From assembly GCA_963779415.1 (NCBI GenBank), contig CAVZYA010000001.1, positions 1,952,001 through 2,016,000 of the forward strand: a stretch of 64,000 bases of DNA, written 5' to 3'. Of the stretch, positions 8,608 through 64,000 are shown one piece after another. This stretch comes from an uncultured Acidobacteriota bacterium (GTDB lineage Bacteria > Acidobacteriota > Thermoanaerobaculia > UBA5066). A program made the translations under genes and the position numbers. The notes below the pieces were generated by a model. It worked only from the letters and a program-made list of their open reading frames with translations, did not search any database and had not been told where the DNA came from. The number at the start of each line of letters is the position of its first letter. The stretch's first letter is position 1.

Positions 8608-9795
8608 ATGGACACGACGCTCGTCGACTGGTGCGCCTCCGAGGTCGCCTCCCTCCGTGCCGCCGGCACCTACAAGAAGGAACGGATACTCGAAAGTCCG
8701 ACGGGGGCCCGCATCCGCGTCGACGGGCGCGACGTTCTGATGCTCACGTCCAACAACTACCTCGGCTTTGCGAATCACCCCCGCATCGTCGAGGCGGCGC
8801 GGAACGCCGTGAGCCGGTGGGGAAACGGCCTCGGCTCGGTCCGCTTCATCTGCGGGACGCAGCAGCTCCACAAGGAGCTGGAGGCGACGATCTCCCGATT
8901 CTTCGGGACGGACGACACGATCCTCTACATGTCGTGCTGGAACGCGAACGAGGGGCTCTTCCAGCCGCTCCTCCTGGAAGAGGACGCCATCCTGACCGAC
9001 GCCTTGAACCACGCTTCCATCATCGACGGCATCCGGCTCTGCAAGGCGAAGCGCTTCGTCGTCCCGCACGGCGACCTCGCCGCTTTCGAGAAGGCGCTCG
9101 CCGACGCTCAGGGCTGCCGACGGCGCCTTCTGATAACGGACGGCGTCTTCTCGATGGAAGGGGAGACCGGGCCGCTCCGTCAGCTCGCCGACCTCTGCGA
9201 CCGGTACGCCACGACGCTCGTCGTCGACGACTCGCATGCGACCGGAGTCCTCGGGGCGACCGGGCGCGGGACGGCCGAGCACCTCGGCGTCGTGGACCGC
9301 ATTTCGATCCACACCTCGACGCTCGGCAAGGCGATGGGCTCGGCGGCGGGCGGGTTCGTCACCGGCCCGGGTCCCGTCGTCGAGCTCCTCCGCCAGCGCT
9401 CCCGGACGACGCTTTTCTCGAACTCGCTCCCGCCCGCCGTCGCGGGCTCGTCGCTCGAGGCGTTCCGGATGCTGATGGAGGACCCGTCGCCCGTCCGGAA
9501 GCTCCAGGCCAACGCCGCCACCTTCCGGTCGCGGATGAAGGCGGCGGGCTTCACGATCCCCGAGGGAATTCACCCGATCGTCCCCGTCATCGTGGGCGAC
9601 ACCGCAAAGGCGCTCGCCATGTCCGATGCCCTCTTCTCGAGAGGGGTCTACGTCTCGGGGTTCGGCTTCCCGGTCGTCCCCCAGGGGCACGCGCGGCTTC
9701 GATGCCAGATTTCGGCGGTCCACACCGACGTCGATCTCGACGAGGCCGTGGAGGCCTTCAAGGTCGTCGGGCGCGAATTCGGCGTGATCCGTTAG
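8608..9795 (+). CDS. kbl: Glycine C-acetyltransferase (2-amino-3-ketobutyrate CoA ligase), copy 1
   Basis: SNNYLG, SVRFICGT, LNHASIIDG, TDGVFSMEG, DDSHATG, STLGKA (PLP lysine). Confidence 0.9.
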   Translation: MDTTLVDWCASEVASLRAAGTYKKERILESPTGARIRVDGRDVLMLTSNNYLGFANHPRIVEAARNAVSRWGNGLGSVRFICGTQQLHKELEATISRFFGTDDTILYMSCWNANEGLFQPLLLEEDAILTDALNHASIIDGIRLCKAKRFVVPHGDLAAFEKALADAQGCRRRLLITDGVFSMEGETGPLRQLADLCDRYATTLVVDDSHATGVLGATGRGTAEHLGVVDRISIHTSTLGKAMGSAAGGFVTGPGPVVELLRQRSRTTLFSNSLPPAVAGSSLEAFRMLMEDPSPVRKLQANAATFRSRMKAAGFTIPEGIHPIVPVIVGDTAKALAMSDALFSRGVYVSGFGFPVVPQGHARLRCQISAVHTDVDLDEAVEAFKVVGREFGVIR

Positions 9796-54234: not shown

Positions 54235-54692
54235 TCAGTGACTTACGGGGAGTGAGCCGGATGAACGGGGAGGCGAAAGCCGCAATGGAAGCGGGGTTCC
54301 TCGCGATGCCGGATAGACGCCGCGAAACGTGGAGACCGGCCTCGTGAACGAGCCCTGAACGGAAGATCCGGCGTTCTGTTAGGTCCCGGCCAGCATCGCT
54401 GGAGGGAACCCGCGGCGGCCCCGTTGACCTTTCGCCTGCCCCCCGTTTCCCTCAGTCCCCGGCCTATGCCGACTGCTACGACCCCACGCCCGCAGCTTAT
54501 CTCCTCGTGGATCGATTGCCCGGAGCACGTCATCTCGGGCGCTCATTTCATCTCGTCGATCACCTTCAGTCATTCGGACGCCAGGCGCTCTTGCAGCCCT
54601 AAGAAAACCCGAGGCGCCACTCTTACCCTTTCCATCTCAATATCTTACGAAACTCGGTGGCACCGCATTCTCCCGCATCAAGAGGCCATCAC

Positions 54693-54738
54693 TTGACACC
54701 GTAGCTGCATTCCTACATTCTCAAGGTATGAATGCAGC
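54693..54738 (+). promoter_or_regulatory. Promoter and palindromic operator of the HTH gene
   Basis: TTGACA at 54693; GCTGCATTC-C-TAC...GTA-T-GAATGCAGC inverted repeat (54704-54738) covering the -10 region and ATG. Confidence 0.6.
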
Positions 54739-55414
54739 GCCAGAGCCACTTCCGGCGAGGAACATTGACGTAGGAACCGTATCTTCGGCACTCGATGAAG
54801 CGACCCTCGTGGTCGCCATACAAGACGCAGAACGGAGGATCTCCGACGGAGAAGCCAAGCGTCTTGAGCTCGACCGCTCCATTTCGGCGGCTAGGGAGGA
54901 GAAGCGTCTCCTGGAGCGTCTCTTGGAGATTCGAAGAAAGGGTGCCGTAGAAACCGATCCGATCGCCGAGGGAAATCCCGCGGGAGATCCCCTCAAGTCC
55001 GAGCGCGCTGCTCACCCAGCTGTAGATTCAGTTGTCGCGGAGCTTGAGTCTGCGGGACGACCCATCCACATCTCTGAACTCGTGCGGCTCCTGAAGACGT
55101 GCGACGTCGAAATTCCCGGCGCCGGTACCCAGGCGAACCTCATTAGTCATCTTCGCCGAGACCCGCGCTTGATGCGTTCCTCACGAGGAATGTATGGCCT
55201 AACGAGTTGGGGATTATCCTTCTTTCACAGTACTTCAAGACGTATTCCCTCAGTTCCCCGTGAGTACTGCTGTAGTCGTGGATTGCCTTTCGAAGAGATT
55301 GCATCCGATCTCAGGGTCGGAACGCTAGAAGGCACCCGAGTCAGCCGGGAGTGCTTCGTCTTCGATTCAAAGTCACCGCGATTGCACCGACGGCCGCTAC
55401 AGGTATCCGCGTGA
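54728..55414 (+). CDS. Coiled-coil plus winged-helix (HARE-HTH-like) protein; C-terminal tail probably spurious
   Basis: LESAGRPIHISEL...LISHLRRDPRLMRSSRGMYGLTSW; sequence after ~55215 looks like a deletion junction. Confidence 0.6.
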   Translation: MNAAPEPLPARNIDVGTVSSALDEATLVVAIQDAERRISDGEAKRLELDRSISAAREEKRLLERLLEIRRKGAVETDPIAEGNPAGDPLKSERAAHPAVDSVVAELESAGRPIHISELVRLLKTCDVEIPGAGTQANLISHLRRDPRLMRSSRGMYGLTSWGLSFFHSTSRRIPSVPREYCCSRGLPFEEIASDLRVGTLEGTRVSRECFVFDSKSPRLHRRPLQVSA

Positions 55415-56112
55415 CTCTTGGAGAGATCGTCGCCGACTCGGCGGTCGAGGTGCTTTCGTCATTGCGGACAAGTATCGTGGCGTCAAGTCGCTCTGCTTTG
55501 AACGCGACCGTTACTCTGCACACTGTGGTACAAAGGAAAGACGGTCCGGCTGCTCGCTCCGCTTTCAATGATAGGAAGACCGACTGACGTTGCGCTCGTC
55601 TGCACGACGAAAGGATCAGTCTCCCGAAGACCGCGACTTTGAGACCGGAGTTGGAGTTGGGGGTTTCGATAGCGGAGTTCCGGGTAGGAGCTGCCGAGCG
55701 ATACGAGACGCGCCGTTCTTGGGCCAGCGCTTCTGGTCAGACCGTGAAGACTGAGCTTCGAACGGTCCCGGAAGAAGGACAACCGCTGAAGATCAAGATA
55801 GAGGATATTGATCTAGTCAACCAGCGGTACCGTCTTCACAACGGTCTCCTCGAGATCGCCGCAAGGCACAGGTCTCTTAGTCGGTACCTTGGTAGAAAGG
55901 AAGAGAATTTTCCCGGTCAGGATGATGAGCGATTCGGGTGCTGATAGCCGAGATCGTCGCCGACGCTGTATGTGCGGACATCGTGAGCCGAAACGTCGAT
56001 GAGCATCCAGAGAACTACAAGACGCCGACTGGGACCGCTACTACGCGGAGTACAGTGAATACATGACGAAGTTCCTTCCCATCGCTCACCGGATCCAAGT
56101 ACCCGGAGCGTG
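55340..56112 (+). pseudogene. Fragmented C-terminal remnant of a larger unknown gene
   Basis: Protein-like pieces in shifting frames: LKIKIEDIDL..IAARHRSLSRYLG, VLIAEIVADAVC, WDRYYAEYSEYMTKFLPIAHRIQ. Confidence 0.5.
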
Positions 56113-56436
56113 ATCGGTACGAGTAGTGGCGTCGCTGGATTCAGACCTCCATTCGTGCTTGACCAGCCTTCCAAGCGGCGAGGAGAACTGGGCGGTCTAT
56201 GGTGGGCCGCGTATCACCTGCGGAATACCGAAAGGAAGTACCCTTCCGCACGGGTCTCGCCTTCGAAGAACGAGCCGCCGTCATGGCGGAGGCGTGGCTC
56301 GGCGCGATGGACGCAGAACCATGATCGTTCTCAGCTGTCTTTTGGCTGGAGGCCGAAAGCGTGCAGGAGTGGAATGCGTCCCGCCCGGGACCTGCGAACG
56401 TTCGATTGAGGGGAGGTAAGGCGAGAGGAAAAAAGG

Positions 56437-56526
56437 TGGCGGACAGGGTGGGATTCGAACCCACGGTAACCTTTCGGCTACACACGGCTTCCAACCGTGC
56501 TCCTTAAACCACTCGGACACCTGTCC
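56437..56526 (-). tRNA. tRNA-Ser(GGA)
   Basis: Acceptor GGACAGG/CCTGTCC-GCCA, anticodon arm CACGG-TTGGAAG-CCGTG, long variable arm. Confidence 0.96.
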
Positions 56527-57891: not shown

Positions 57892-58374
57892 TTACCTGTC
57901 CGGACGAGGGCGGGCGGCAGCCCTCTTCTCGCGGAAGAACTCCTTCAGGATCTCCCCGCACTCTCCGGCGAGGACGCCGGCCGTCACATGAAGGCGGTGG
58001 TTCAGCCGCGGGTCGCGGCAGAGGTCCCCGAGCGACCCGGCGAAGCCGGCCTTCGGGTCGGCCGCCCCGTAGACGAGCCGCGGGAGGCGCGAGAGGACGA
58101 TCGCCCCGGCGCACATGGCGCACGGCTCGAGCGTCACGTAGAGCGTGCAGCCGTCGAGGCGCCACGAGCCGACCTTCTTCGCCGCCCGGCGGATCGCGAT
58201 CACCTCGGCGTGCGCCGTCGGGTCGCCGTCCGCCTCGCGCCGGTTCCGCGCCCGCGCGATCAGAGCGCCGTCCCGGACGACGACCGCCCCCACGGGAACG
58301 TCGCGATGAGCGGGGGCCCGCCGCGCCGTCCTCAGCGCCTCCTTCATCCACCGTTCGTCACGGTCCGCTGTCAC
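57892..58374 (-). CDS. tadA: tRNA adenosine(34) deaminase
   Basis: VPVGAV, DPTAHAE, TLEPCAMC, DPKAG. Confidence 0.93.
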   Translation of the reverse strand: MTADRDERWMKEALRTARRAPAHRDVPVGAVVVRDGALIARARNRREADGDPTAHAEVIAIRRAAKKVGSWRLDGCTLYVTLEPCAMCAGAIVLSRLPRLVYGAADPKAGFAGSLGDLCRDPRLNHRLHVTAGVLAGECGEILKEFFREKRAAARPRPDR

Positions 58375-58384
58375 CGTCGTGAGC

Positions 58385-59539
58385 TTACGGGATCGGCGGG
58401 AGGGGGCTCTCCTCGCGTCCGCCCGACAACCTCGTCTCGGGTCCGGCCGGCTCTCCCCGCGGGACGAGGACGACCGACGCCGCCATGACGACCGCCGTCA
58501 CGGCCGCGCCCGGCACGAGGCCGAGCTCTTCGCGCGCGGGGCGCGTCACGAGCGCGGTGAGCGGGAATCCGCAGTCGAGAACGACGCGGACGAGCGGTCC
58601 CTCCGCGAGGACGGCGGTGACGTGCCCCGGAAGGTGGTTGCGCTCGGTCCCGTGCGACGGGGGGACGCCACGCTCGAGGAGGACGTCCTCGGCACGGAGA
58701 CAGGCGAAGACCTCGCCCCGGACGCCGACGCGGTCGGCCGCGGCGAGACGCCGGTCGCCGATCGCGACCGTGACGACGCCGTCGCTCTCGGCGATGACGT
58801 GCCCCGGGAGGACGCTCTCGATTCCCGTGACGCGCGCCACGTCCACGTCCGAGGGGCGGCTGAAGACCTCGTCGACGGGACCGACCTGTCGGACCGAGCC
58901 GTCGAGAACGACGGCCACGCGGTCCCCGAGGAGAAGCGCCTCGGCCCGGTCGTGGGTCACGACGACGGACGGCACGTCGAGCGCGGCGAGGAACGCCCGA
59001 AGTCCGCTCCGGAGCGCCTCGCGCGCCGGGGTGTCGAGGGCCGAGAGCGGCTCGTCGAGGAGGAGGAGCCGCGGCCTCGGCGCGAGCGTGCGAGCGAGGG
59101 CGATCCGCTGTCTCTCTCCTCCCGACAGCTCAGACGGATAGCGTTCCGCGAGGGCCCTCATCCCGACGAGGGTGAGGACCTCGTCCGTCCGTCCGGTCCG
59201 CTCCTCGCGCGGAGAGTCCGAGAGGCCGTACGCGACGTTCTTCCGGACGGTCAGGTGCGGGAAGAGGGCATAGTCCTGGAAGAGGACGCCGACGCGCCGC
59301 TCCTGCGGCGGACAAAAGAGGCCCTTCCCCGCGTCGAACCATGTCTCCTCGCCGAAGCGGATCACCCCGGCATCGGGGCGGTCGAGGCCGGCGAGGCACC
59401 GGAGAATCGTCGTCTTTCCCGCGCCCGACGGTCCGAAGAGGACCGTCACGTCGGCGCGCGCCAGGGGAAGGACGAGATCGGCCCGGATGGAAGGCCCTCC
59501 TGGGTAGCGCCGCTCGAAACGGGCCGAGAGGTCGCTCAT
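58385..59539 (-). CDS. modC: Molybdate ABC transporter ATPase with TOBE domain
   Basis: GPSGAGKT, LSGGERQR, LLDEP, VTHD, C-terminal TOBE. Confidence 0.92.
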   Translation of the reverse strand: MSDLSARFERRYPGGPSIRADLVLPLARADVTVLFGPSGAGKTTILRCLAGLDRPDAGVIRFGEETWFDAGKGLFCPPQERRVGVLFQDYALFPHLTVRKNVAYGLSDSPREERTGRTDEVLTLVGMRALAERYPSELSGGERQRIALARTLAPRPRLLLLDEPLSALDTPAREALRSGLRAFLAALDVPSVVVTHDRAEALLLGDRVAVVLDGSVRQVGPVDEVFSRPSDVDVARVTGIESVLPGHVIAESDGVVTVAIGDRRLAAADRVGVRGEVFACLRAEDVLLERGVPPSHGTERNHLPGHVTAVLAEGPLVRVVLDCGFPLTALVTRPAREELGLVPGAAVTAVVMAASVVLVPRGEPAGPETRLSGGREESPLPPIP

Positions 59540-60216
59540 TCGGAAGGCCAGAGGGCTCCTGCCCGGCGCCTCAGGCCGTAGGTCACGGCGAGGACGACGA
59601 ACGAGAAGCCGAGAAGGAGAAGCGACGTCGCGCCGGCGCTGGCGTAGTCGAGCGCCTGAACGTCGTCGTAGATCGAGATCGAGGCCGTCCGCGTCACCCC
59701 CGGGAGATTCCCGCCCACCATCAGGACGACGCCGAACTCCCCCATCGTGTGGGCGAAGCTGAGAACGAGGCCCGTCACGATCCCCGGCAGCGACAGCGGG
59801 ATGATGACGCGACGGAAGGTCCCGAGCCTCGAGACGCCGAGGCTGAAGGAGGCCTCGAGGAGCCGGCGCGGAACGCGGGCGAAGGCCGCCGCGAAGGGCT
59901 GAACGGCGAAGGGAAGGCTGTAGAGAACCGACGCGACGAGGAGGCCGGCGAAGGTGAACGGCAGCCGGGAACCCGTGAGGCCCTCGACGAGACGGCCGAG
60001 CGGACTCCTCGGGCCCGTCGCGACGAGGAAGTAGAAGCCGAGGACCGTCGGCGGAAGGACGAGCGGCAGGGCGACGACCGCCTCGACGAGGAACTTCCAG
60101 CGGCGCGTCGAGAACGCCACCCAATAGGCGACGGGCAGGCCGACGAGGAGAAGCACGAGCGTCGTCGCCGCCGAGAGGCGCACCGAGAGGGCGACGGCCG
60201 TCCAGTCGAGGCTCAA
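59536..60216 (-). CDS. modB: Molybdate ABC transporter permease
   Basis: LPLVLPPTVLGFY, YSLPFAVQP, FAHTMGEFG. Confidence 0.93.
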   Translation of the reverse strand: MSLDWTAVALSVRLSAATTLVLLLVGLPVAYWVAFSTRRWKFLVEAVVALPLVLPPTVLGFYFLVATGPRSPLGRLVEGLTGSRLPFTFAGLLVASVLYSLPFAVQPFAAAFARVPRRLLEASFSLGVSRLGTFRRVIIPLSLPGIVTGLVLSFAHTMGEFGVVLMVGGNLPGVTRTASISIYDDVQALDYASAGATSLLLLGFSFVVLAVTYGLRRRAGALWPSE

Positions 60217-61013
60217 GGCGCCGGCGGGACGAACCCGAACCTCGCGAGAACGGCCCGCCCCTCGGGACCGATCAGGAATCCCCGGAAGGCCGAGGCGGCC
60301 GAAACCTCCTTCGACCCCTTCAGAACGACGCCGGCCTGGCGCATCGCCGGGTACGAGGAGATCGGAATCTCGACCCACCGTCCCTTCGCCGCCATTCCCG
60401 GAGCGAGGGCGAGCGAGATCGCCACGAGGCCGGCGTCGGCGGCGCCCGACTCGACGAACTGCGCCGCCTGCGCGACGTTCTCGCCGAAGACGAGCCTCTC
60501 CTTCACCGATTCGAAGAGGCCGAGCGACCGGAGCGCCGCCTCCGCCGCGCGGCCGTAGGGCGCGTGGCGGGGGTTCGCGATCGCGATCTTCTTCACCACC
60601 GGATCGGCGAGGGCGGAGGCGCCCAGCCCCTCGATGTCGATCATCGACTCCCGCCGGACCCAGACGACGAGGCGTCCGACCCCGTAGACGAATTCCGAGT
60701 CCGGATCGGCGAGGCCCGCCTTCACGAGCTTCGCCGGGTATTCCACGTCGGCCGAGAGAAAGAGATCGAACGGCGCTCCGTTCGAGATCTGCGCGAAGAA
60801 GTTCCCGGACGAGCCGAATGTCACCTTCACCTCGACATCAGGGCGGCTCTTCCGGAACTCCGGGAGGGCGGTCTCGAGGGCGAATTTCAGGTCCGCGGCC
60901 GCGGCGACGGAGATCTCGGCGGCGGCCGCCGTCCGCGCGCAGACGAGCGCCGCGGCGACGATGGCGCCCCCGTGCGCCCACGCCCCGCCCTTTCCACTCA
61001 CGCCCGCGTTCAA
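60213..61013 (-). CDS. modA: Molybdate-binding periplasmic protein
   Basis: VAAAADL, FGSSG, QISNGAPFD, ANPRHAPYG, GENVAQ. Confidence 0.93.
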   Translation of the reverse strand: MNAGVSGKGGAWAHGGAIVAAALVCARTAAAAEISVAAAADLKFALETALPEFRKSRPDVEVKVTFGSSGNFFAQISNGAPFDLFLSADVEYPAKLVKAGLADPDSEFVYGVGRLVVWVRRESMIDIEGLGASALADPVVKKIAIANPRHAPYGRAAEAALRSLGLFESVKERLVFGENVAQAAQFVESGAADAGLVAISLALAPGMAAKGRWVEIPISSYPAMRQAGVVLKGSKEVSAASAFRGFLIGPEGRAVLARFGFVPPAP

Positions 61014-61198: not shown

Positions 61199-61573
61199 AT
61201 GATTCTCGGGATCGGGACCGACCTCTTGGACGTCTCGCGGATGGAGCAAGAGCTCCTGAAGGAGAGCGCCGGGCTCAAGGAAGAGGTCTTCACCCCCTCC
61301 GAGATCGCCTACTGCGACGGGAAGCGGTACCCCGCGCGCCATTTCGCCGCGCGCTTCGCGGCAAAGGAGGCTCTCGTCAAGGCGCTCCCCGCCCCGGGCG
61401 TCCTCCCCCTCCTCCGGGACGTCGAGGTGGAGAGGACGCAGACGGGCGCGCCACGTCTCATCCTTCACGGCGAGCTTCGGAATGCCGCCTGGCGGCTCGG
61501 CGTGAAGAAGATCCTCGTCTCCCTCTCCCACACCGGCGGTCTCGCCACGGCGAGCGTCGTCCTCGAGGGGTGA
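61199..61573 (+). CDS. acpS: Holo-ACP synthase (AcpS-type PPTase)
   Basis: GIGTD, FTPSE, AARFAAKEA, SLSHT. Confidence 0.93.
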   Translation: MILGIGTDLLDVSRMEQELLKESAGLKEEVFTPSEIAYCDGKRYPARHFAARFAAKEALVKALPAPGVLPLLRDVEVERTQTGAPRLILHGELRNAAWRLGVKKILVSLSHTGGLATASVVLEG

Positions 61574-61576
61574 GTC

Positions 61577-63310
61577 ATGTACGTTACGGAAGCTCTCGAA
61601 GAGACCCACCTCGCAAACATCGGCTCCTACGAGGAGCGGCTCCGGAACTTCGACTGGAAGATCGCCGAGCGCGAGATGGGTCTCGCTCCGGGCGATCCCG
61701 CCAATCTCGGATGGAACCTTTCGGACCGGATCTGCCGGCTGGGCCTCGGCCGCAAGCCGGCGCTCCTCTGGGAAGGCTCGGACGGGGCGGAGCGGACCTA
61801 CACCTTCGACGACCTCCGCTCTCTCTCGAACGCCGTCGCCTCGTTCTTCGGGCGCCTCGGGCTCCTCCCGGGCGAGCGCGTCTGTCTCTTCATGGACCGG
61901 GTGCCGGAGCTCTACATCGGGTTCGTCGGCCTCCTGAAGCTCGGGACCGTCGTCCAGCCGCTCTTCTCCGCCTTCGGGGAGGAGTCGCTCCTCACCCGCC
62001 TCGCCGACGCGGGGACCGCCGCGATCGTGACGCAGAGGAAGCACCTCCCGAAGATCCGGAGGATCCGCGAGAAGGTCCGCCACCTTCGCCACGTCGTCGT
62101 CGTCGACGCGGCCGGCCTCGCGCTCCGCGAGGGCGAAACGGCCTTCGACCTCGACGCGGAACCCCATCCTCCGGGGTTTCCGGTCTTTCCGGCCACCCAC
62201 GAGACGCCGTCGCTCCTCCACTACACCTCGGGGACGACCGGCCCGCCGAAGGGGGCGCAGCACGTCCACGGCTCGCTCCTTTCCCAGTACCTGACGACGA
62301 AGTGGGTCCTCGACCTGAAGGAGAAGGACGTCTACTGGTGCAATGCCGACCCGGGGTGGGTGACCGGGACCTCATACGGGATCATCGGCCCCTGGTCGAA
62401 CGGCACGACTCAGGCCGTCCTCGACTCGGGCTTCTCGGCGAGAGGCTGGTACGACTTCATCGCGAGGCGGCGGATCACCGTCTGGTACTCGGCGCCGACG
62501 GCCATCCGCCTCCTGATGCGCGAGGGGACCGCAGCCGCGAAGGCGCACGACCTCTCGTCCCTGCGCCACCTCGCGAGCGTCGGCGAGCCGCTGAACCCGG
62601 AAGCCGTCCACTGGTCCCGCGAGGCGTTCGGCCTTCCCTTCCACGACACCTACTGGCAGACGGAGACCGGCTGCATCGTCATTTCCAACTACCCCGGGAT
62701 GCCGATCAGGGCGGGATCGATGGGAAGGCCGTTTCCCGGCATCACGGCGACGATCCTCGACCCGAAGAGCTGCGTGCCGGTCGCTGAAACGGGGCGCGTC
62801 GGCCTGATCGGCCTCAAGCCCGGGTGGCCTTCGATGATCCGCGGCTACTGGCAGAACCCGGACGGCTACGCCCGGAAGTTCGGGAACGGCTGGTACCTGA
62901 CCGGCGACCGGGCGACGCGCGACGCCGACGGCTACTTCTGGTTCGTGGGCCGCGACGACGACGTCATCAACACGGGGGGACACCTCGTCGGGCCGTTCGA
63001 GGTCGAGTCGGCGCTCCTCGAGCATCCCGCCGTCGCCGAATCGGCCGCCGTCGCCAAGCCGGATCCCGTCAACATGGAGGTCGTCAAGGCTTTCGTCACG
63101 CTCAAGAAGGGCTTTGCGCCGGGCCCGGAGCTGGAGCTCGAGATCATGAACTTCGTCCGGAAACGGCTCTCCCCCATCGCCATGCCGCAGGAGATCGCCT
63201 TCGTCGAGACCCTCCCGCGGACCCGAAGCGGAAAGATCCTGCGCCGGGTTCTCCGCGCGCCGGAATGGGGCGAGCCGGTGGGCGACCTGTCGACCCTGAT
63301 GGAGGACTGA
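61577..63310 (+). CDS. acsA: Acetate--CoA ligase-like adenylating enzyme
   Basis: YTSGTTGPPKG, ADPGWVTG, VGEPLNP, DTYWQTETG, TGD, PRTRSGKI. Confidence 0.88.
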   Translation: MYVTEALEETHLANIGSYEERLRNFDWKIAEREMGLAPGDPANLGWNLSDRICRLGLGRKPALLWEGSDGAERTYTFDDLRSLSNAVASFFGRLGLLPGERVCLFMDRVPELYIGFVGLLKLGTVVQPLFSAFGEESLLTRLADAGTAAIVTQRKHLPKIRRIREKVRHLRHVVVVDAAGLALREGETAFDLDAEPHPPGFPVFPATHETPSLLHYTSGTTGPPKGAQHVHGSLLSQYLTTKWVLDLKEKDVYWCNADPGWVTGTSYGIIGPWSNGTTQAVLDSGFSARGWYDFIARRRITVWYSAPTAIRLLMREGTAAAKAHDLSSLRHLASVGEPLNPEAVHWSREAFGLPFHDTYWQTETGCIVISNYPGMPIRAGSMGRPFPGITATILDPKSCVPVAETGRVGLIGLKPGWPSMIRGYWQNPDGYARKFGNGWYLTGDRATRDADGYFWFVGRDDDVINTGGHLVGPFEVESALLEHPAVAESAAVAKPDPVNMEVVKAFVTLKKGFAPGPELELEIMNFVRKRLSPIAMPQEIAFVETLPRTRSGKILRRVLRAPEWGEPVGDLSTLMED

Positions 63311-63312
63311 AG

Positions 63313-63576
63313 ATGGACGACCTGAGGAAAACGATCCTCGACTACGTTCGCCGCGAGTACATCGAGGAGGGGGACGACCGGCCGCTCGACTTCAAGACGC
63401 CGCTCATCACGGGAGGGATCGTCGACTCCTTCTCGATGGTCTCCCTCAAGCGCTTCCTCGAGACGAAATACGCCATCCGGATCCCGGACGCCGACGCGAG
63501 CCCCGAGGCATTCGACTCCGTCGAGAAGATCGCGAAGCTCGTCGAACGCTTCGCAGTCATGACGGCGAAGGCCTGA
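63313..63576 (+). CDS. Stand-alone acyl carrier protein (DltC-like signature)
   Basis: 87 aa acidic protein; PLITGGIVDSFSM with phosphopantetheinylation Ser; FDSVEKI. Confidence 0.88.
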   Translation: MDDLRKTILDYVRREYIEEGDDRPLDFKTPLITGGIVDSFSMVSLKRFLETKYAIRIPDADASPEAFDSVEKIAKLVERFAVMTAKA

Positions 63577-63578
63577 CC

Positions 63579-64000
63579 ATGAGCGAAAGCCTCACCCTCT
63601 CCGTCCGCGACGTCCTCCGCGCCGAGCTGGCCCTCCTCCGGGAGTCGGGGCTCTACAAGGAGGAGCGGGTCATCCACGCCCCGCAGGGGGCCGACATCGA
63701 GGTGGAGTTCCCGGCGGGGGCCGCCCCCCGGAAGGTCCTGAACCTCTGCGCGAACAACTACCTCGGCCTCTCGTCCCATCCGCAGGTCCTCGCGGCGGCG
63801 CACGCCGGCCTCGACCGTCGCGGGTACGGGATGTCGTCGGTCCGGTTCATCTGCGGGACGCAGGACATTCACCGCGAGCTGGAGAAGCGCCTCTCGGAGT
63901 TCCTCGGGACCGAGGAGACGATCCTCTTCTCCTCCTGCCTCGACGCCAACGCGGCGATCTTCGAGGCGATCCTCTCCGACAAGGACGTGATGATCGCCGA
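63579..64000 (+). CDS. kbl: Glycine C-acetyltransferase-like PLP enzyme, copy 2 (runs off window; not in ORF track)
   Basis: Own translation: MSESLTLSVRD...GLYKEER...LCANNYLGLSSHP...GMSSVRFICGTQDIHRELE...SCLDANA. Confidence 0.88.
   Translation, partial: MSESLTLSVRDVLRAELALLRESGLYKEERVIHAPQGADIEVEFPAGAAPRKVLNLCANNYLGLSSHPQVLAAAHAGLDRRGYGMSSVRFICGTQDIHRELEKRLSEFLGTEETILFSSCLDANAAIFEAILSDKDVMIA

Follow-up and report, generated by a model that had tools for sequence, protein, structure and literature searches.

Sphingolipid synthesis in Alpha-, Beta- and Gammaproteobacteria involves AasR, AcpR and serine palmitoyltransferase (SPT), whose genes co-occur (CC_1165, CC_1163 and CC_1162 in Caulobacter); in the consulted part of the published account, AasR acylated AcpR only, and SPT preferred acyl-AcpR over acyl-coenzyme A (CoA) (PMC9386255). 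The window analyzed here is a stretch of 64,000 nucleotides (positions 1,952,001 to 2,016,000 of contig CAVZYA010000001.1, in our coordinates G000:C1:1952001-2016000) from an uncultured Acidobacteriota bacterium with a genome of 4.36 Mb and about 70% G+C. At its end lies a module of four genes on the + strand, in the order acpS, ligase, carrier and kbl2, with gaps of 3, 2 and 2 bases; the initial annotation of the window had likewise placed four genes 2-3 bp apart at these positions. The most economical reading of the module, by analogy, would be a carrier-tethered condensation of an acetyl group with glycine, that is, a short-chain analogue of AasR-AcpR-SPT. We gave an about even chance to a self-contained module in which the glycine C-acetyltransferase reaction takes place on a protein carrier and not on CoA.

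Conservation was investigated in a set of 41 related genomes, the source genome included, in which carrier orthologues were accepted at E ≤ 1e-35. The orthologue was found in 13 of the 41 genomes, all in the family of the source genome (13 of the family's 25 genomes). At all 12 related loci compared, the genes of AcpS, the ligase, the carrier, Kbl2 and a 101-aa protein followed one another in this order, between flanks that differed. The 28 genomes that served as the non-module set include G025 and G030; each count of 0/28 given below becomes 0/26 when both are left out.

The carrier alignment was then used to scan 185,579 species, each represented by one genome. The profile matched at least 598 stretches, and at least 480 loci in species genomes were confirmed by tblastn; synteny was counted in the best 80 of these loci, with at least 60% identity as the criterion for Kbl2 and the ligase. 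The Kbl2 type was downstream of the carrier in 77 loci, at a distance of no more than 200 bp in 73 of them; of the three misses, two were at a contig edge and one was fragmented. The ligase was upstream in 70 (within 200 bp in 65), and acpS in 49. Clustering of open reading frames (ORFs) over 81 loci revealed no further family in more than 9 loci, so the module appeared self-contained. The four genes, treated as one operon in the initial annotation, were thus found to be conserved together. At two loci (L061 and L100) the ligase and Kbl2 were matched by tblastn in several shifted pieces, which are either decayed copies or indel errors of the assembly.

All 80 best loci came from metagenome-assembled genomes; therefore single taxon labels may be wrong. 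The labels included several Acidobacteriota classes, Gemmatimonadota, Aminicenantes, Ignavibacteriota, Calditrichota and Fibrobacterota, as well as Zixibacteria, Latescibacterota, Eisenbacteria, Polyangia, Chrysiogenales, Planctomycetota and a few others. In an even sample of Acidobacteriota, the carrier was present in 46 of 401 genomes (32 of 231 genera), always in single copy, and a collection of plasmids gave no tblastn match to the carrier at E ≤ 1e-8. The module is a conserved accessory unit with a horizontally patchy distribution and very high conservation. Across phyla its proteins shared 65-90% identity, and the constraint on them exceeded that on the ordinary Kbl of these genomes; this implies that their function is important.

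The numbers of paralogues followed the module. Two AcpS matches were found in 11 of the 13 module genomes and in 0/28 others (23 with one, 5 with none); the two module genomes with a single match were assemblies of 470 and 640 contigs, and in both that match was the module copy. The Kbl2 type (79-100% identity) was present in 13/13 module genomes and 0/28 others, while the Kbl1 type, which shares 43-48% identity with Kbl2, occurred in 36 of the 41 relatives. A match of 709-747 bits to the acetate--CoA ligase model NF003313/PRK04319 was found at the module locus in 13/13 module genomes and in 0/28 others, where the best match elsewhere reached 547 bits. These counts supported the assignment of the 4'-phosphopantetheinyl transferase (PPTase), the ligase and Kbl2 as module-specific extra copies rather than housekeeping genes. 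A chance adjacency of housekeeping genes was ruled out by the conserved synteny and the counts of extra paralogues.

The module PPTase (61199..61573, + strand) is an AcpS-type protein of 124 aa, which passed TIGR00516 with 71.4 bits (cut-off 59.8) and matched the Pfam family ACPS (PF01648) at E 1.9e-17. A second AcpS-type gene of the genome, at C1:1168741-1169103 (L030:1498-1872), scored 87 bits against 71 for the operon copy and is probably the housekeeping copy; a response-regulator-like ORF comes after it. The presence of this other AcpS-type gene supports a PPTase dedicated to the module, as the initial annotation had it, and the confinement of the extra AcpS to module genomes agreed with this. 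A further PPTase-family match was located within a 1210-aa open frame at G000:C2:963007-966775, and 3.5 kb from it a 744-aa frame matched PP-binding; the locus may encode a polyketide synthase, a nonribosomal peptide synthetase or a fatty-acid megasynthase.

The carrier (63313..63576, + strand) is a small acidic protein of 87 aa with weak NCBIfam acyl carrier protein (ACP) matches. Its GIVDS motif occupies residues 35-39, and Ser39 in GGIVDSFSMVSL is the presumed phosphopantetheine attachment site. Residues 34-46 (GGIVDSFSMVSLK), which include the Asp-Ser motif, were invariant among 38 carriers of many phyla, whose length was 82-88 aa and whose median net charge was -5; carriers shared 65-84% identity across phyla. 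The carrier had been described as DltC-like. A small protein with GIVDS was indeed found, but the DltC model gave 21 bits, and the best NCBIfam match was the ornithine-lipid ACP model ("ACP for OlsHI") with 62 bits (cut-off 130). From this label nothing could be transferred to the carrier, and OlsH itself, in the consulted part of its description, needs neither ACP nor CoA. Atlas neighbours of the carrier carried PP-binding in part.

Kbl2 (63579..64832, + strand; L004:3580-4833) is a Kbl-family alpha-oxoamine synthase of 417 aa whose gene leaves the window at 64000; the region past the window was read from 20 kb of the same contig (L004). It passed both Kbl equivalogs, NF005394 with 583.2 bits (cut-off 460) and TIGR01822 with 578.4 bits (cut-off 493), and was below the cut-offs of SPT (236-335 bits against 500-670), BioF (363 against 426) and 5-aminolevulinate synthase. 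The solved Kbl chains 7bxp and 1fc4 matched Kbl2 with 466 and 455 bits. Kbl1 (8608..9795, + strand), the ordinary Kbl of the lineage, is located outside the module and is considered here for comparison; it passed the Kbl cut-offs with 522 and 534 bits and shared 43% identity with Kbl2. A Kbl paralogue beside a separate stand-alone kbl at 8608, as annotated initially, was therefore confirmed.

An alignment of 45 Kbl sequences was built from 37 Kbl2 sequences (chosen from 61 eligible ones to span taxa), seven second copies present at these loci, and Kbl1. K251, H145, D217, H220 and S192 were invariant in all 45; they correspond to the Lys that binds pyridoxal 5'-phosphate (PLP) and to the His, Asp and Ser conserved in the fold of this family. 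A 13-residue C-terminal tail (consensus GKxKxEIIxxYG) was present in 37/37 Kbl2 and 0/8 other copies. Next to the PLP-stacking His, Kbl2 had LVHAS where the other copies had LNHAS, and it had GGC(V/I)SG in place of GG(F/Y)(T/V)T. In the FastTree phylogeny of the 45 sequences, all 37 Kbl2 formed one clade with a stem of 0.42 substitutions per site and a local support of 0.757. In five genomes with both types, Kbl2 pairs shared 76-84% identity and canonical Kbl pairs 61-74%, with Kbl2 higher in 10 of 10 pairs; judged from these identities, either a stronger constraint or a more recent spread would fit.

The complex of the Kbl2 dimer with the carrier was folded, with alignments and a two-copy set-up that differ from those of the calibration, and scored 0.44 against 0.02 for the best of three controls. 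Between runs, 92% or more of the contacts were shared, and the predicted local distance difference test (pLDDT) value of the partner was 80 or higher. Of 80 solved complexes 58 attain the mark of weak support, as do 2 of 110 mismatched pairs, and scores of 0.60 or less belonged to just 7 of those 80 solved complexes and to both passing mismatches. The complex fold thus lends weak support to a binding of the carrier by Kbl2.

The ligase (61577..63310, + strand) is an AcsA-type adenylate-forming enzyme of 577 aa, a module-specific paralogue with an acetate-sized pocket. It scored 719 bits against NF003313/PRK04319, just below the cut-off of 729, which was passed by 7 of the 13 module orthologues in relatives (731-747 bits). 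Its closest solved chain was the acetyl-CoA synthetase 9g79_B (572 aa, 539 bits), and the long-form Acs of S. enterica gave about 330 bits. The ligase alignment contained 55 sequences of 540-640 aa from a 70-member cluster, one of them an unrelated paralogue; the 15 other members were dropped for their length (truncated, fragmented or over-extended ORFs).

V262, T263, V335 and W360 aligned with V310, T311, V386 and W414, the acetate-pocket residues of the S. enterica enzyme, and were kept in 53-54 of the 55 ligases (Trp in 53). The Trp belongs to the motif DTYWQTETG at residues 357-365, and the initial call of an AcsA-like ligase with a small-pocket Trp was correct. The pocket includes the Val at which a change favours propionate in Acs. 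The pocket argues for an acid of two, at most three, carbons. The catalytic A10 Lys553 was present in 55/55 ligases.

These features bear on the very improbable alternative that the module is a known long-chain or dicarboxylate system, making an SPT-like sphingoid or aminolipid base, or biotin from a pimeloyl-carrier and BioF. BioF accepts pimeloyl-ACP. AasR-AcpR-SPT, as described in the consulted part of that work, shows this layout of a ligase, a carrier and an alpha-oxoamine synthase (PMC9386255). Set against this are the pocket-closing Trp and the SPT and BioF scores of Kbl2, all below the cut-offs. In addition, most of the 41 relatives, whether they have the module or not, were listed with a further paralogue that is BioF-like and shares 34-39% identity with Kbl2.

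It is rather unlikely, too, that the condensation is carrier-dependent but uses other substrates, be it a different C2-C3 acid (propionate, glycolate) or an amino acid other than glycine, and yields a specialised alpha-aminoketone such as a precursor of a pyrazine-type signal or a cofactor building block. The pocket residues bound only the size of the acid, the LVHAS and GGC(V/I)SG segments distinguish Kbl2 from the other copies, and both the patchy accessory distribution (46/401 Acidobacteriota genomes) and the conserved 101-aa partner in 31 of the 80 best loci would suit such a product. All four pocket residues, however, matched Acs, including the Val at which a change favours propionate. 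Kbl2 was about as close to the solved Kbls (455-466 bits) as orthologues usually are, and the very high conservation across phyla would be unusual for specialised metabolism.

With regard to the acyl acceptor, Leu470 was found in 54 of the 55 ligases at the site where 9g79_B, 8rpk_A and 2p2f_A have Arg (R526 of S. enterica, in the A8 loop). In Acs, according to the consulted part of a published study, the Arg touches the phosphate of the adenylate and gives stability to the thioester-forming state; without it the enzyme can no longer be saturated with CoA (PMC10455477). The ligases also shared a conserved basic stretch at residues 154-162, where 9g79_B reads TTPELLERIP. Judged from the residues, either CoA or a carrier would fit as the acceptor.

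Several observations weighed against a carrier-based reaction. The Arg that in Acs binds CoA at its 3'-phosphate has its counterpart in R528, which was kept in 54 of the 55 ligases, so the ligase could still use CoA; its sequence bore no sign of lost CoA use, and with 539 bits it stands near a genuine acetyl-CoA synthetase. The source genome had no other Acs-like match above 321 bits, so that in this genome the ligase might also serve the cell as its acetate activator. Kbl2 may simply use acetyl-CoA, since it passed the Kbl equivalog cut-offs, and its complex with the carrier scored in the weak band. The carrier had no Pfam PP-binding match at E ≤ 1, and a genome scan with PF00550 missed it. 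Of the ten best loci that lacked the ligase, four began too late to include it at the locus start, and six had none in the full 6 kb upstream. Finally, the ORF clustering over the 81 loci showed no linked enzyme that would carry the unstable product onward.

Part of this evidence is what would be expected if the ligase and Kbl2 were ordinary CoA-dependent isoenzymes and the carrier and AcpS served another purpose, such as regulation or another acyl transfer. We consider this unlikely. It would account for the Kbl2 scores, for the ligases at or over the PRK04319 cut-off in 7/13 relatives, for the kept Arg and for the rank of this ligase as the best Acs-like gene of its own genome. But the carrier was the tightest-linked partner of Kbl2 (within 200 bp in 73 of the 80 best loci), all four genes were gained and lost together, and Kbl2 and the ligase each carried module-only changes. 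Several module genomes, moreover, hold other Acs types (490-547 bits), and the Kbl2-carrier fold (0.44 against 0.02) gave its weak support to the binding of the two.

Under the carrier-tethered reading, the module AcpS would turn the 87-aa apo-carrier into its holo form at Ser39. The AcsA paralogue would adenylate acetate, perhaps propionate too, and pass the acyl group to the phosphopantetheine thiol of the carrier. Kbl2, holding glycine on PLP, would then condense it with the acetyl-S-carrier to give 2-amino-3-oxobutanoate and the holo-carrier. Conversion of adenosine triphosphate (ATP) to adenosine monophosphate (AMP) and pyrophosphate (PPi) would keep a private acetyl-carrier pool charged, so that the condensation could be pushed forward whatever the acetyl-CoA/CoA ratio; the consumption of ATP by the ligase would favour the direction of synthesis. 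The product could go to aminoacetone and its derivatives, or be reduced to threonine by an unlinked enzyme. That this amounts to a widespread, so far unrecognised, CoA-independent and ATP-driven route of carbon-carbon bond formation, leading from acetate plus glycine to 2-amino-3-oxobutanoate and present in 480 or more species of many phyla, with the private pool as a thermodynamic pump and with aminoacetone- or aminopropanol-type blocks, a signal or conditional threonine formation as outlets, is a tentative proposal that we doubt more than we trust.

The acetate-on-carrier condensation with glycine had been put forward in the initial annotation together with a threonine role and a downstream Tdh or short-chain dehydrogenase/reductase (SDR). 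The condensation gained from the conserved unit, the extra paralogues, the acetate pocket and, weakly, the complex fold; the linked Tdh/SDR did not hold, nor did a bypass of threonine biosynthesis. Both thrC (242 bits, cut-off 167) and thrB (192 bits, cut-off 168), whose absence had been suggested as a check, were present above the cut-offs in the source genome. The module therefore does not replace threonine biosynthesis, and the threonine-bypass idea was not supported.

The distribution of Tdh was also compared. A search for the Zn-type Tdh gave none above the cut-off in the source genome, and none of the 25 genomes of the window's family, the 13 module genomes among them, yielded a Tdh-like gene of this type (genes of the SDR type were outside the search). 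Of the 16 genomes of two sister families, 15 (13 of 14 without G025 and G030) contained a Tdh-like gene, which scored 311-340 bits, below the cut-off of 380, and in 13 of these 15 was within about 1.5 kb of a Kbl1-type gene. The window's family keeps Kbl1 even though no Zn-type Tdh-like gene was found in it. Among the 80 best loci, a Tdh-like gene was within 6 kb of the module in two. One locus (L070:2675-9034, labelled Zixibacteria) contained, in one direction, a Tdh-like gene, acpS, the ligase, the carrier, Kbl2 and a canonical Kbl (632-652 bits), and was the sole locus seen in which both classical threonine-degradation genes flank the module. At another (L117), a true Tdh (578 bits, cut-off 380) was located near a second Kbl. 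The module shares a metabolic corner with Tdh-Kbl but does not depend on a linked Tdh.

A catabolic, energy-conserving module working in reverse would draw on the same two loci. Kbl2 would then cleave threonine-derived 2-amino-3-oxobutanoate with the holo-carrier as its thiol acceptor, and the reversed ligase would convert acetyl-S-carrier, AMP and PPi to acetate and ATP. Cleavage is the usual direction of the Kbl reaction, AMP-forming Acs is able to run backwards, and many module lineages are labelled as anaerobic groups. Yet a Tdh-like gene was near the module in just 2 of the 80 best loci, and the 25 genomes of the family gave no Zn-type Tdh-like gene (SDR-type genes lay outside the search). 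An ordinary Kbl is already present, and a carrier in place of CoA would have no apparent reason. We therefore regard catabolism as quite unlikely and prefer the condensation of acetyl-carrier with glycine.

The gene after kbl2 was not the predicted Tdh or SDR. Twenty bases beyond Kbl2 begins the ORF of the 101-aa protein (window-equivalent 64852-65157; L004:4853-5158), which matched no Pfam or NCBIfam family; it is followed by convergent genes for a cupin / sugar-isomerase-like protein and then a GT2 glycosyltransferase. The 101-aa gene was downstream of the carrier in 31 of the 80 best loci and in 12/12 close relatives. Its AlphaFold2 model (mean pLDDT 81) consisted of two helices, a beta-hairpin and a helix, and a conserved G-x-x-P closes the C-terminus. 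Foldseek found no match to the model in the PDB at E ≤ 0.001, the top rows being similar to double-stranded RNA-binding domains at E > 1, and the Atlas neighbours of the protein carried no names.

On the other side of the module, a molybdate ATP-binding cassette transporter operon (window 58385-61013, minus strand) is divergent from acpS. Its modA was backed by TIGR01256 (195 bits), while the permease and the ATPase were named by eye; modA adjoins the module within the same genus only. A 160-aa ORF (window 57892-58374, minus strand) showed by eye the deaminase motifs HAE...PCxxC and, judged from these motifs, resembles the tRNA adenosine deaminase TadA. The G+C content dipped to 0.56-0.60 at window 54500-56499 against about 0.70 around it, which may indicate RNA genes or foreign DNA. 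The Rfam scan of 11 loci (140 kb) revealed no riboswitch or leader RNA near the module, and its sole match was the signal recognition particle RNA in L093. The scan of the operon for promoters and terminators gave 0 promoter-like sites and 1 terminator-like site, which was on the wrong strand.

The hosts of the module belong mostly to uncultured soil, sediment and reactor lineages of the Acidobacteriota, Gemmatimonadota, Ignavibacteriota, Zixibacteria and others. Kbl is a textbook enzyme of CoA-dependent amino-acid catabolism. If the proposed reaction is true, carrier-protein biochemistry would come to include a two-carbon unit, and this in apparent core metabolism. The module may also offer an alpha-oxoamine synthase system free of acyl-CoA for biocatalysis. 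As it consists of four small soluble proteins, the hypothesis is directly testable in vitro.

Compared with known systems, the module shares with AasR-AcpR-SPT the co-occurrence of a ligase, its own carrier and an alpha-oxoamine synthase. It differs in that its ligase is of the acetate type with the pocket closed by Trp, its synthase is of the Kbl type and not SPT, an AcpS gene belongs to the cluster, and the host phyla are others; its likely amino acid is glycine, and the predicted product is a C4 amino-keto acid in place of a lipid base. With the threonine degradation by Tdh-Kbl (EC 2.3.1.29) it has in common a synthase above the Kbl cut-offs with invariant PLP-site residues. Unlike that pathway, Kbl2 is an extra paralogue beside Kbl1, has the 13-residue tail and is linked to a carrier, and Tdh was nearby in 2 of the 80 best loci.

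The ligase resembles short-form AcsA (PRK04319; 9g79_B) in its length class, its score (539 bits), its acetate pocket and its catalytic Lys, and differs by Leu in place of the A8-loop Arg (54/55), the basic stretch at 154-162 and the proposed carrier-protein acceptor. In DltA-DltC and other stand-alone pairs of ligase and carrier, an ANL-superfamily ligase likewise stands beside a carrier that is about 80 aa long and has a DS motif; in contrast to DltA-DltC, the module carrier scored 21 bits for DltC, the ligase is Acs-type and not amino-acid adenylating, and membrane transfer proteins are not linked. In the natural-product enzymes SxtA and PigH, AONS-like (8-amino-7-oxononanoate synthase-like) domains condense a carrier-bound short acyl group with an amino acid, but these are fused multidomain proteins of large biosynthetic clusters, whereas the module is a free-standing four-gene set without further tailoring genes.

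The full-text literature search found no publication describing this gene set. To this extent the initial statement that no characterised pathway has this layout was right, while the same logic, with a long-chain acyl group and serine, is that of AasR-AcpR-SPT in the consulted part of its description (PMC9386255). The logic of ligase, carrier and synthase is therefore known; what is new is its application to acetate and a Kbl-type enzyme, in a widespread four-gene module with its own AcpS.

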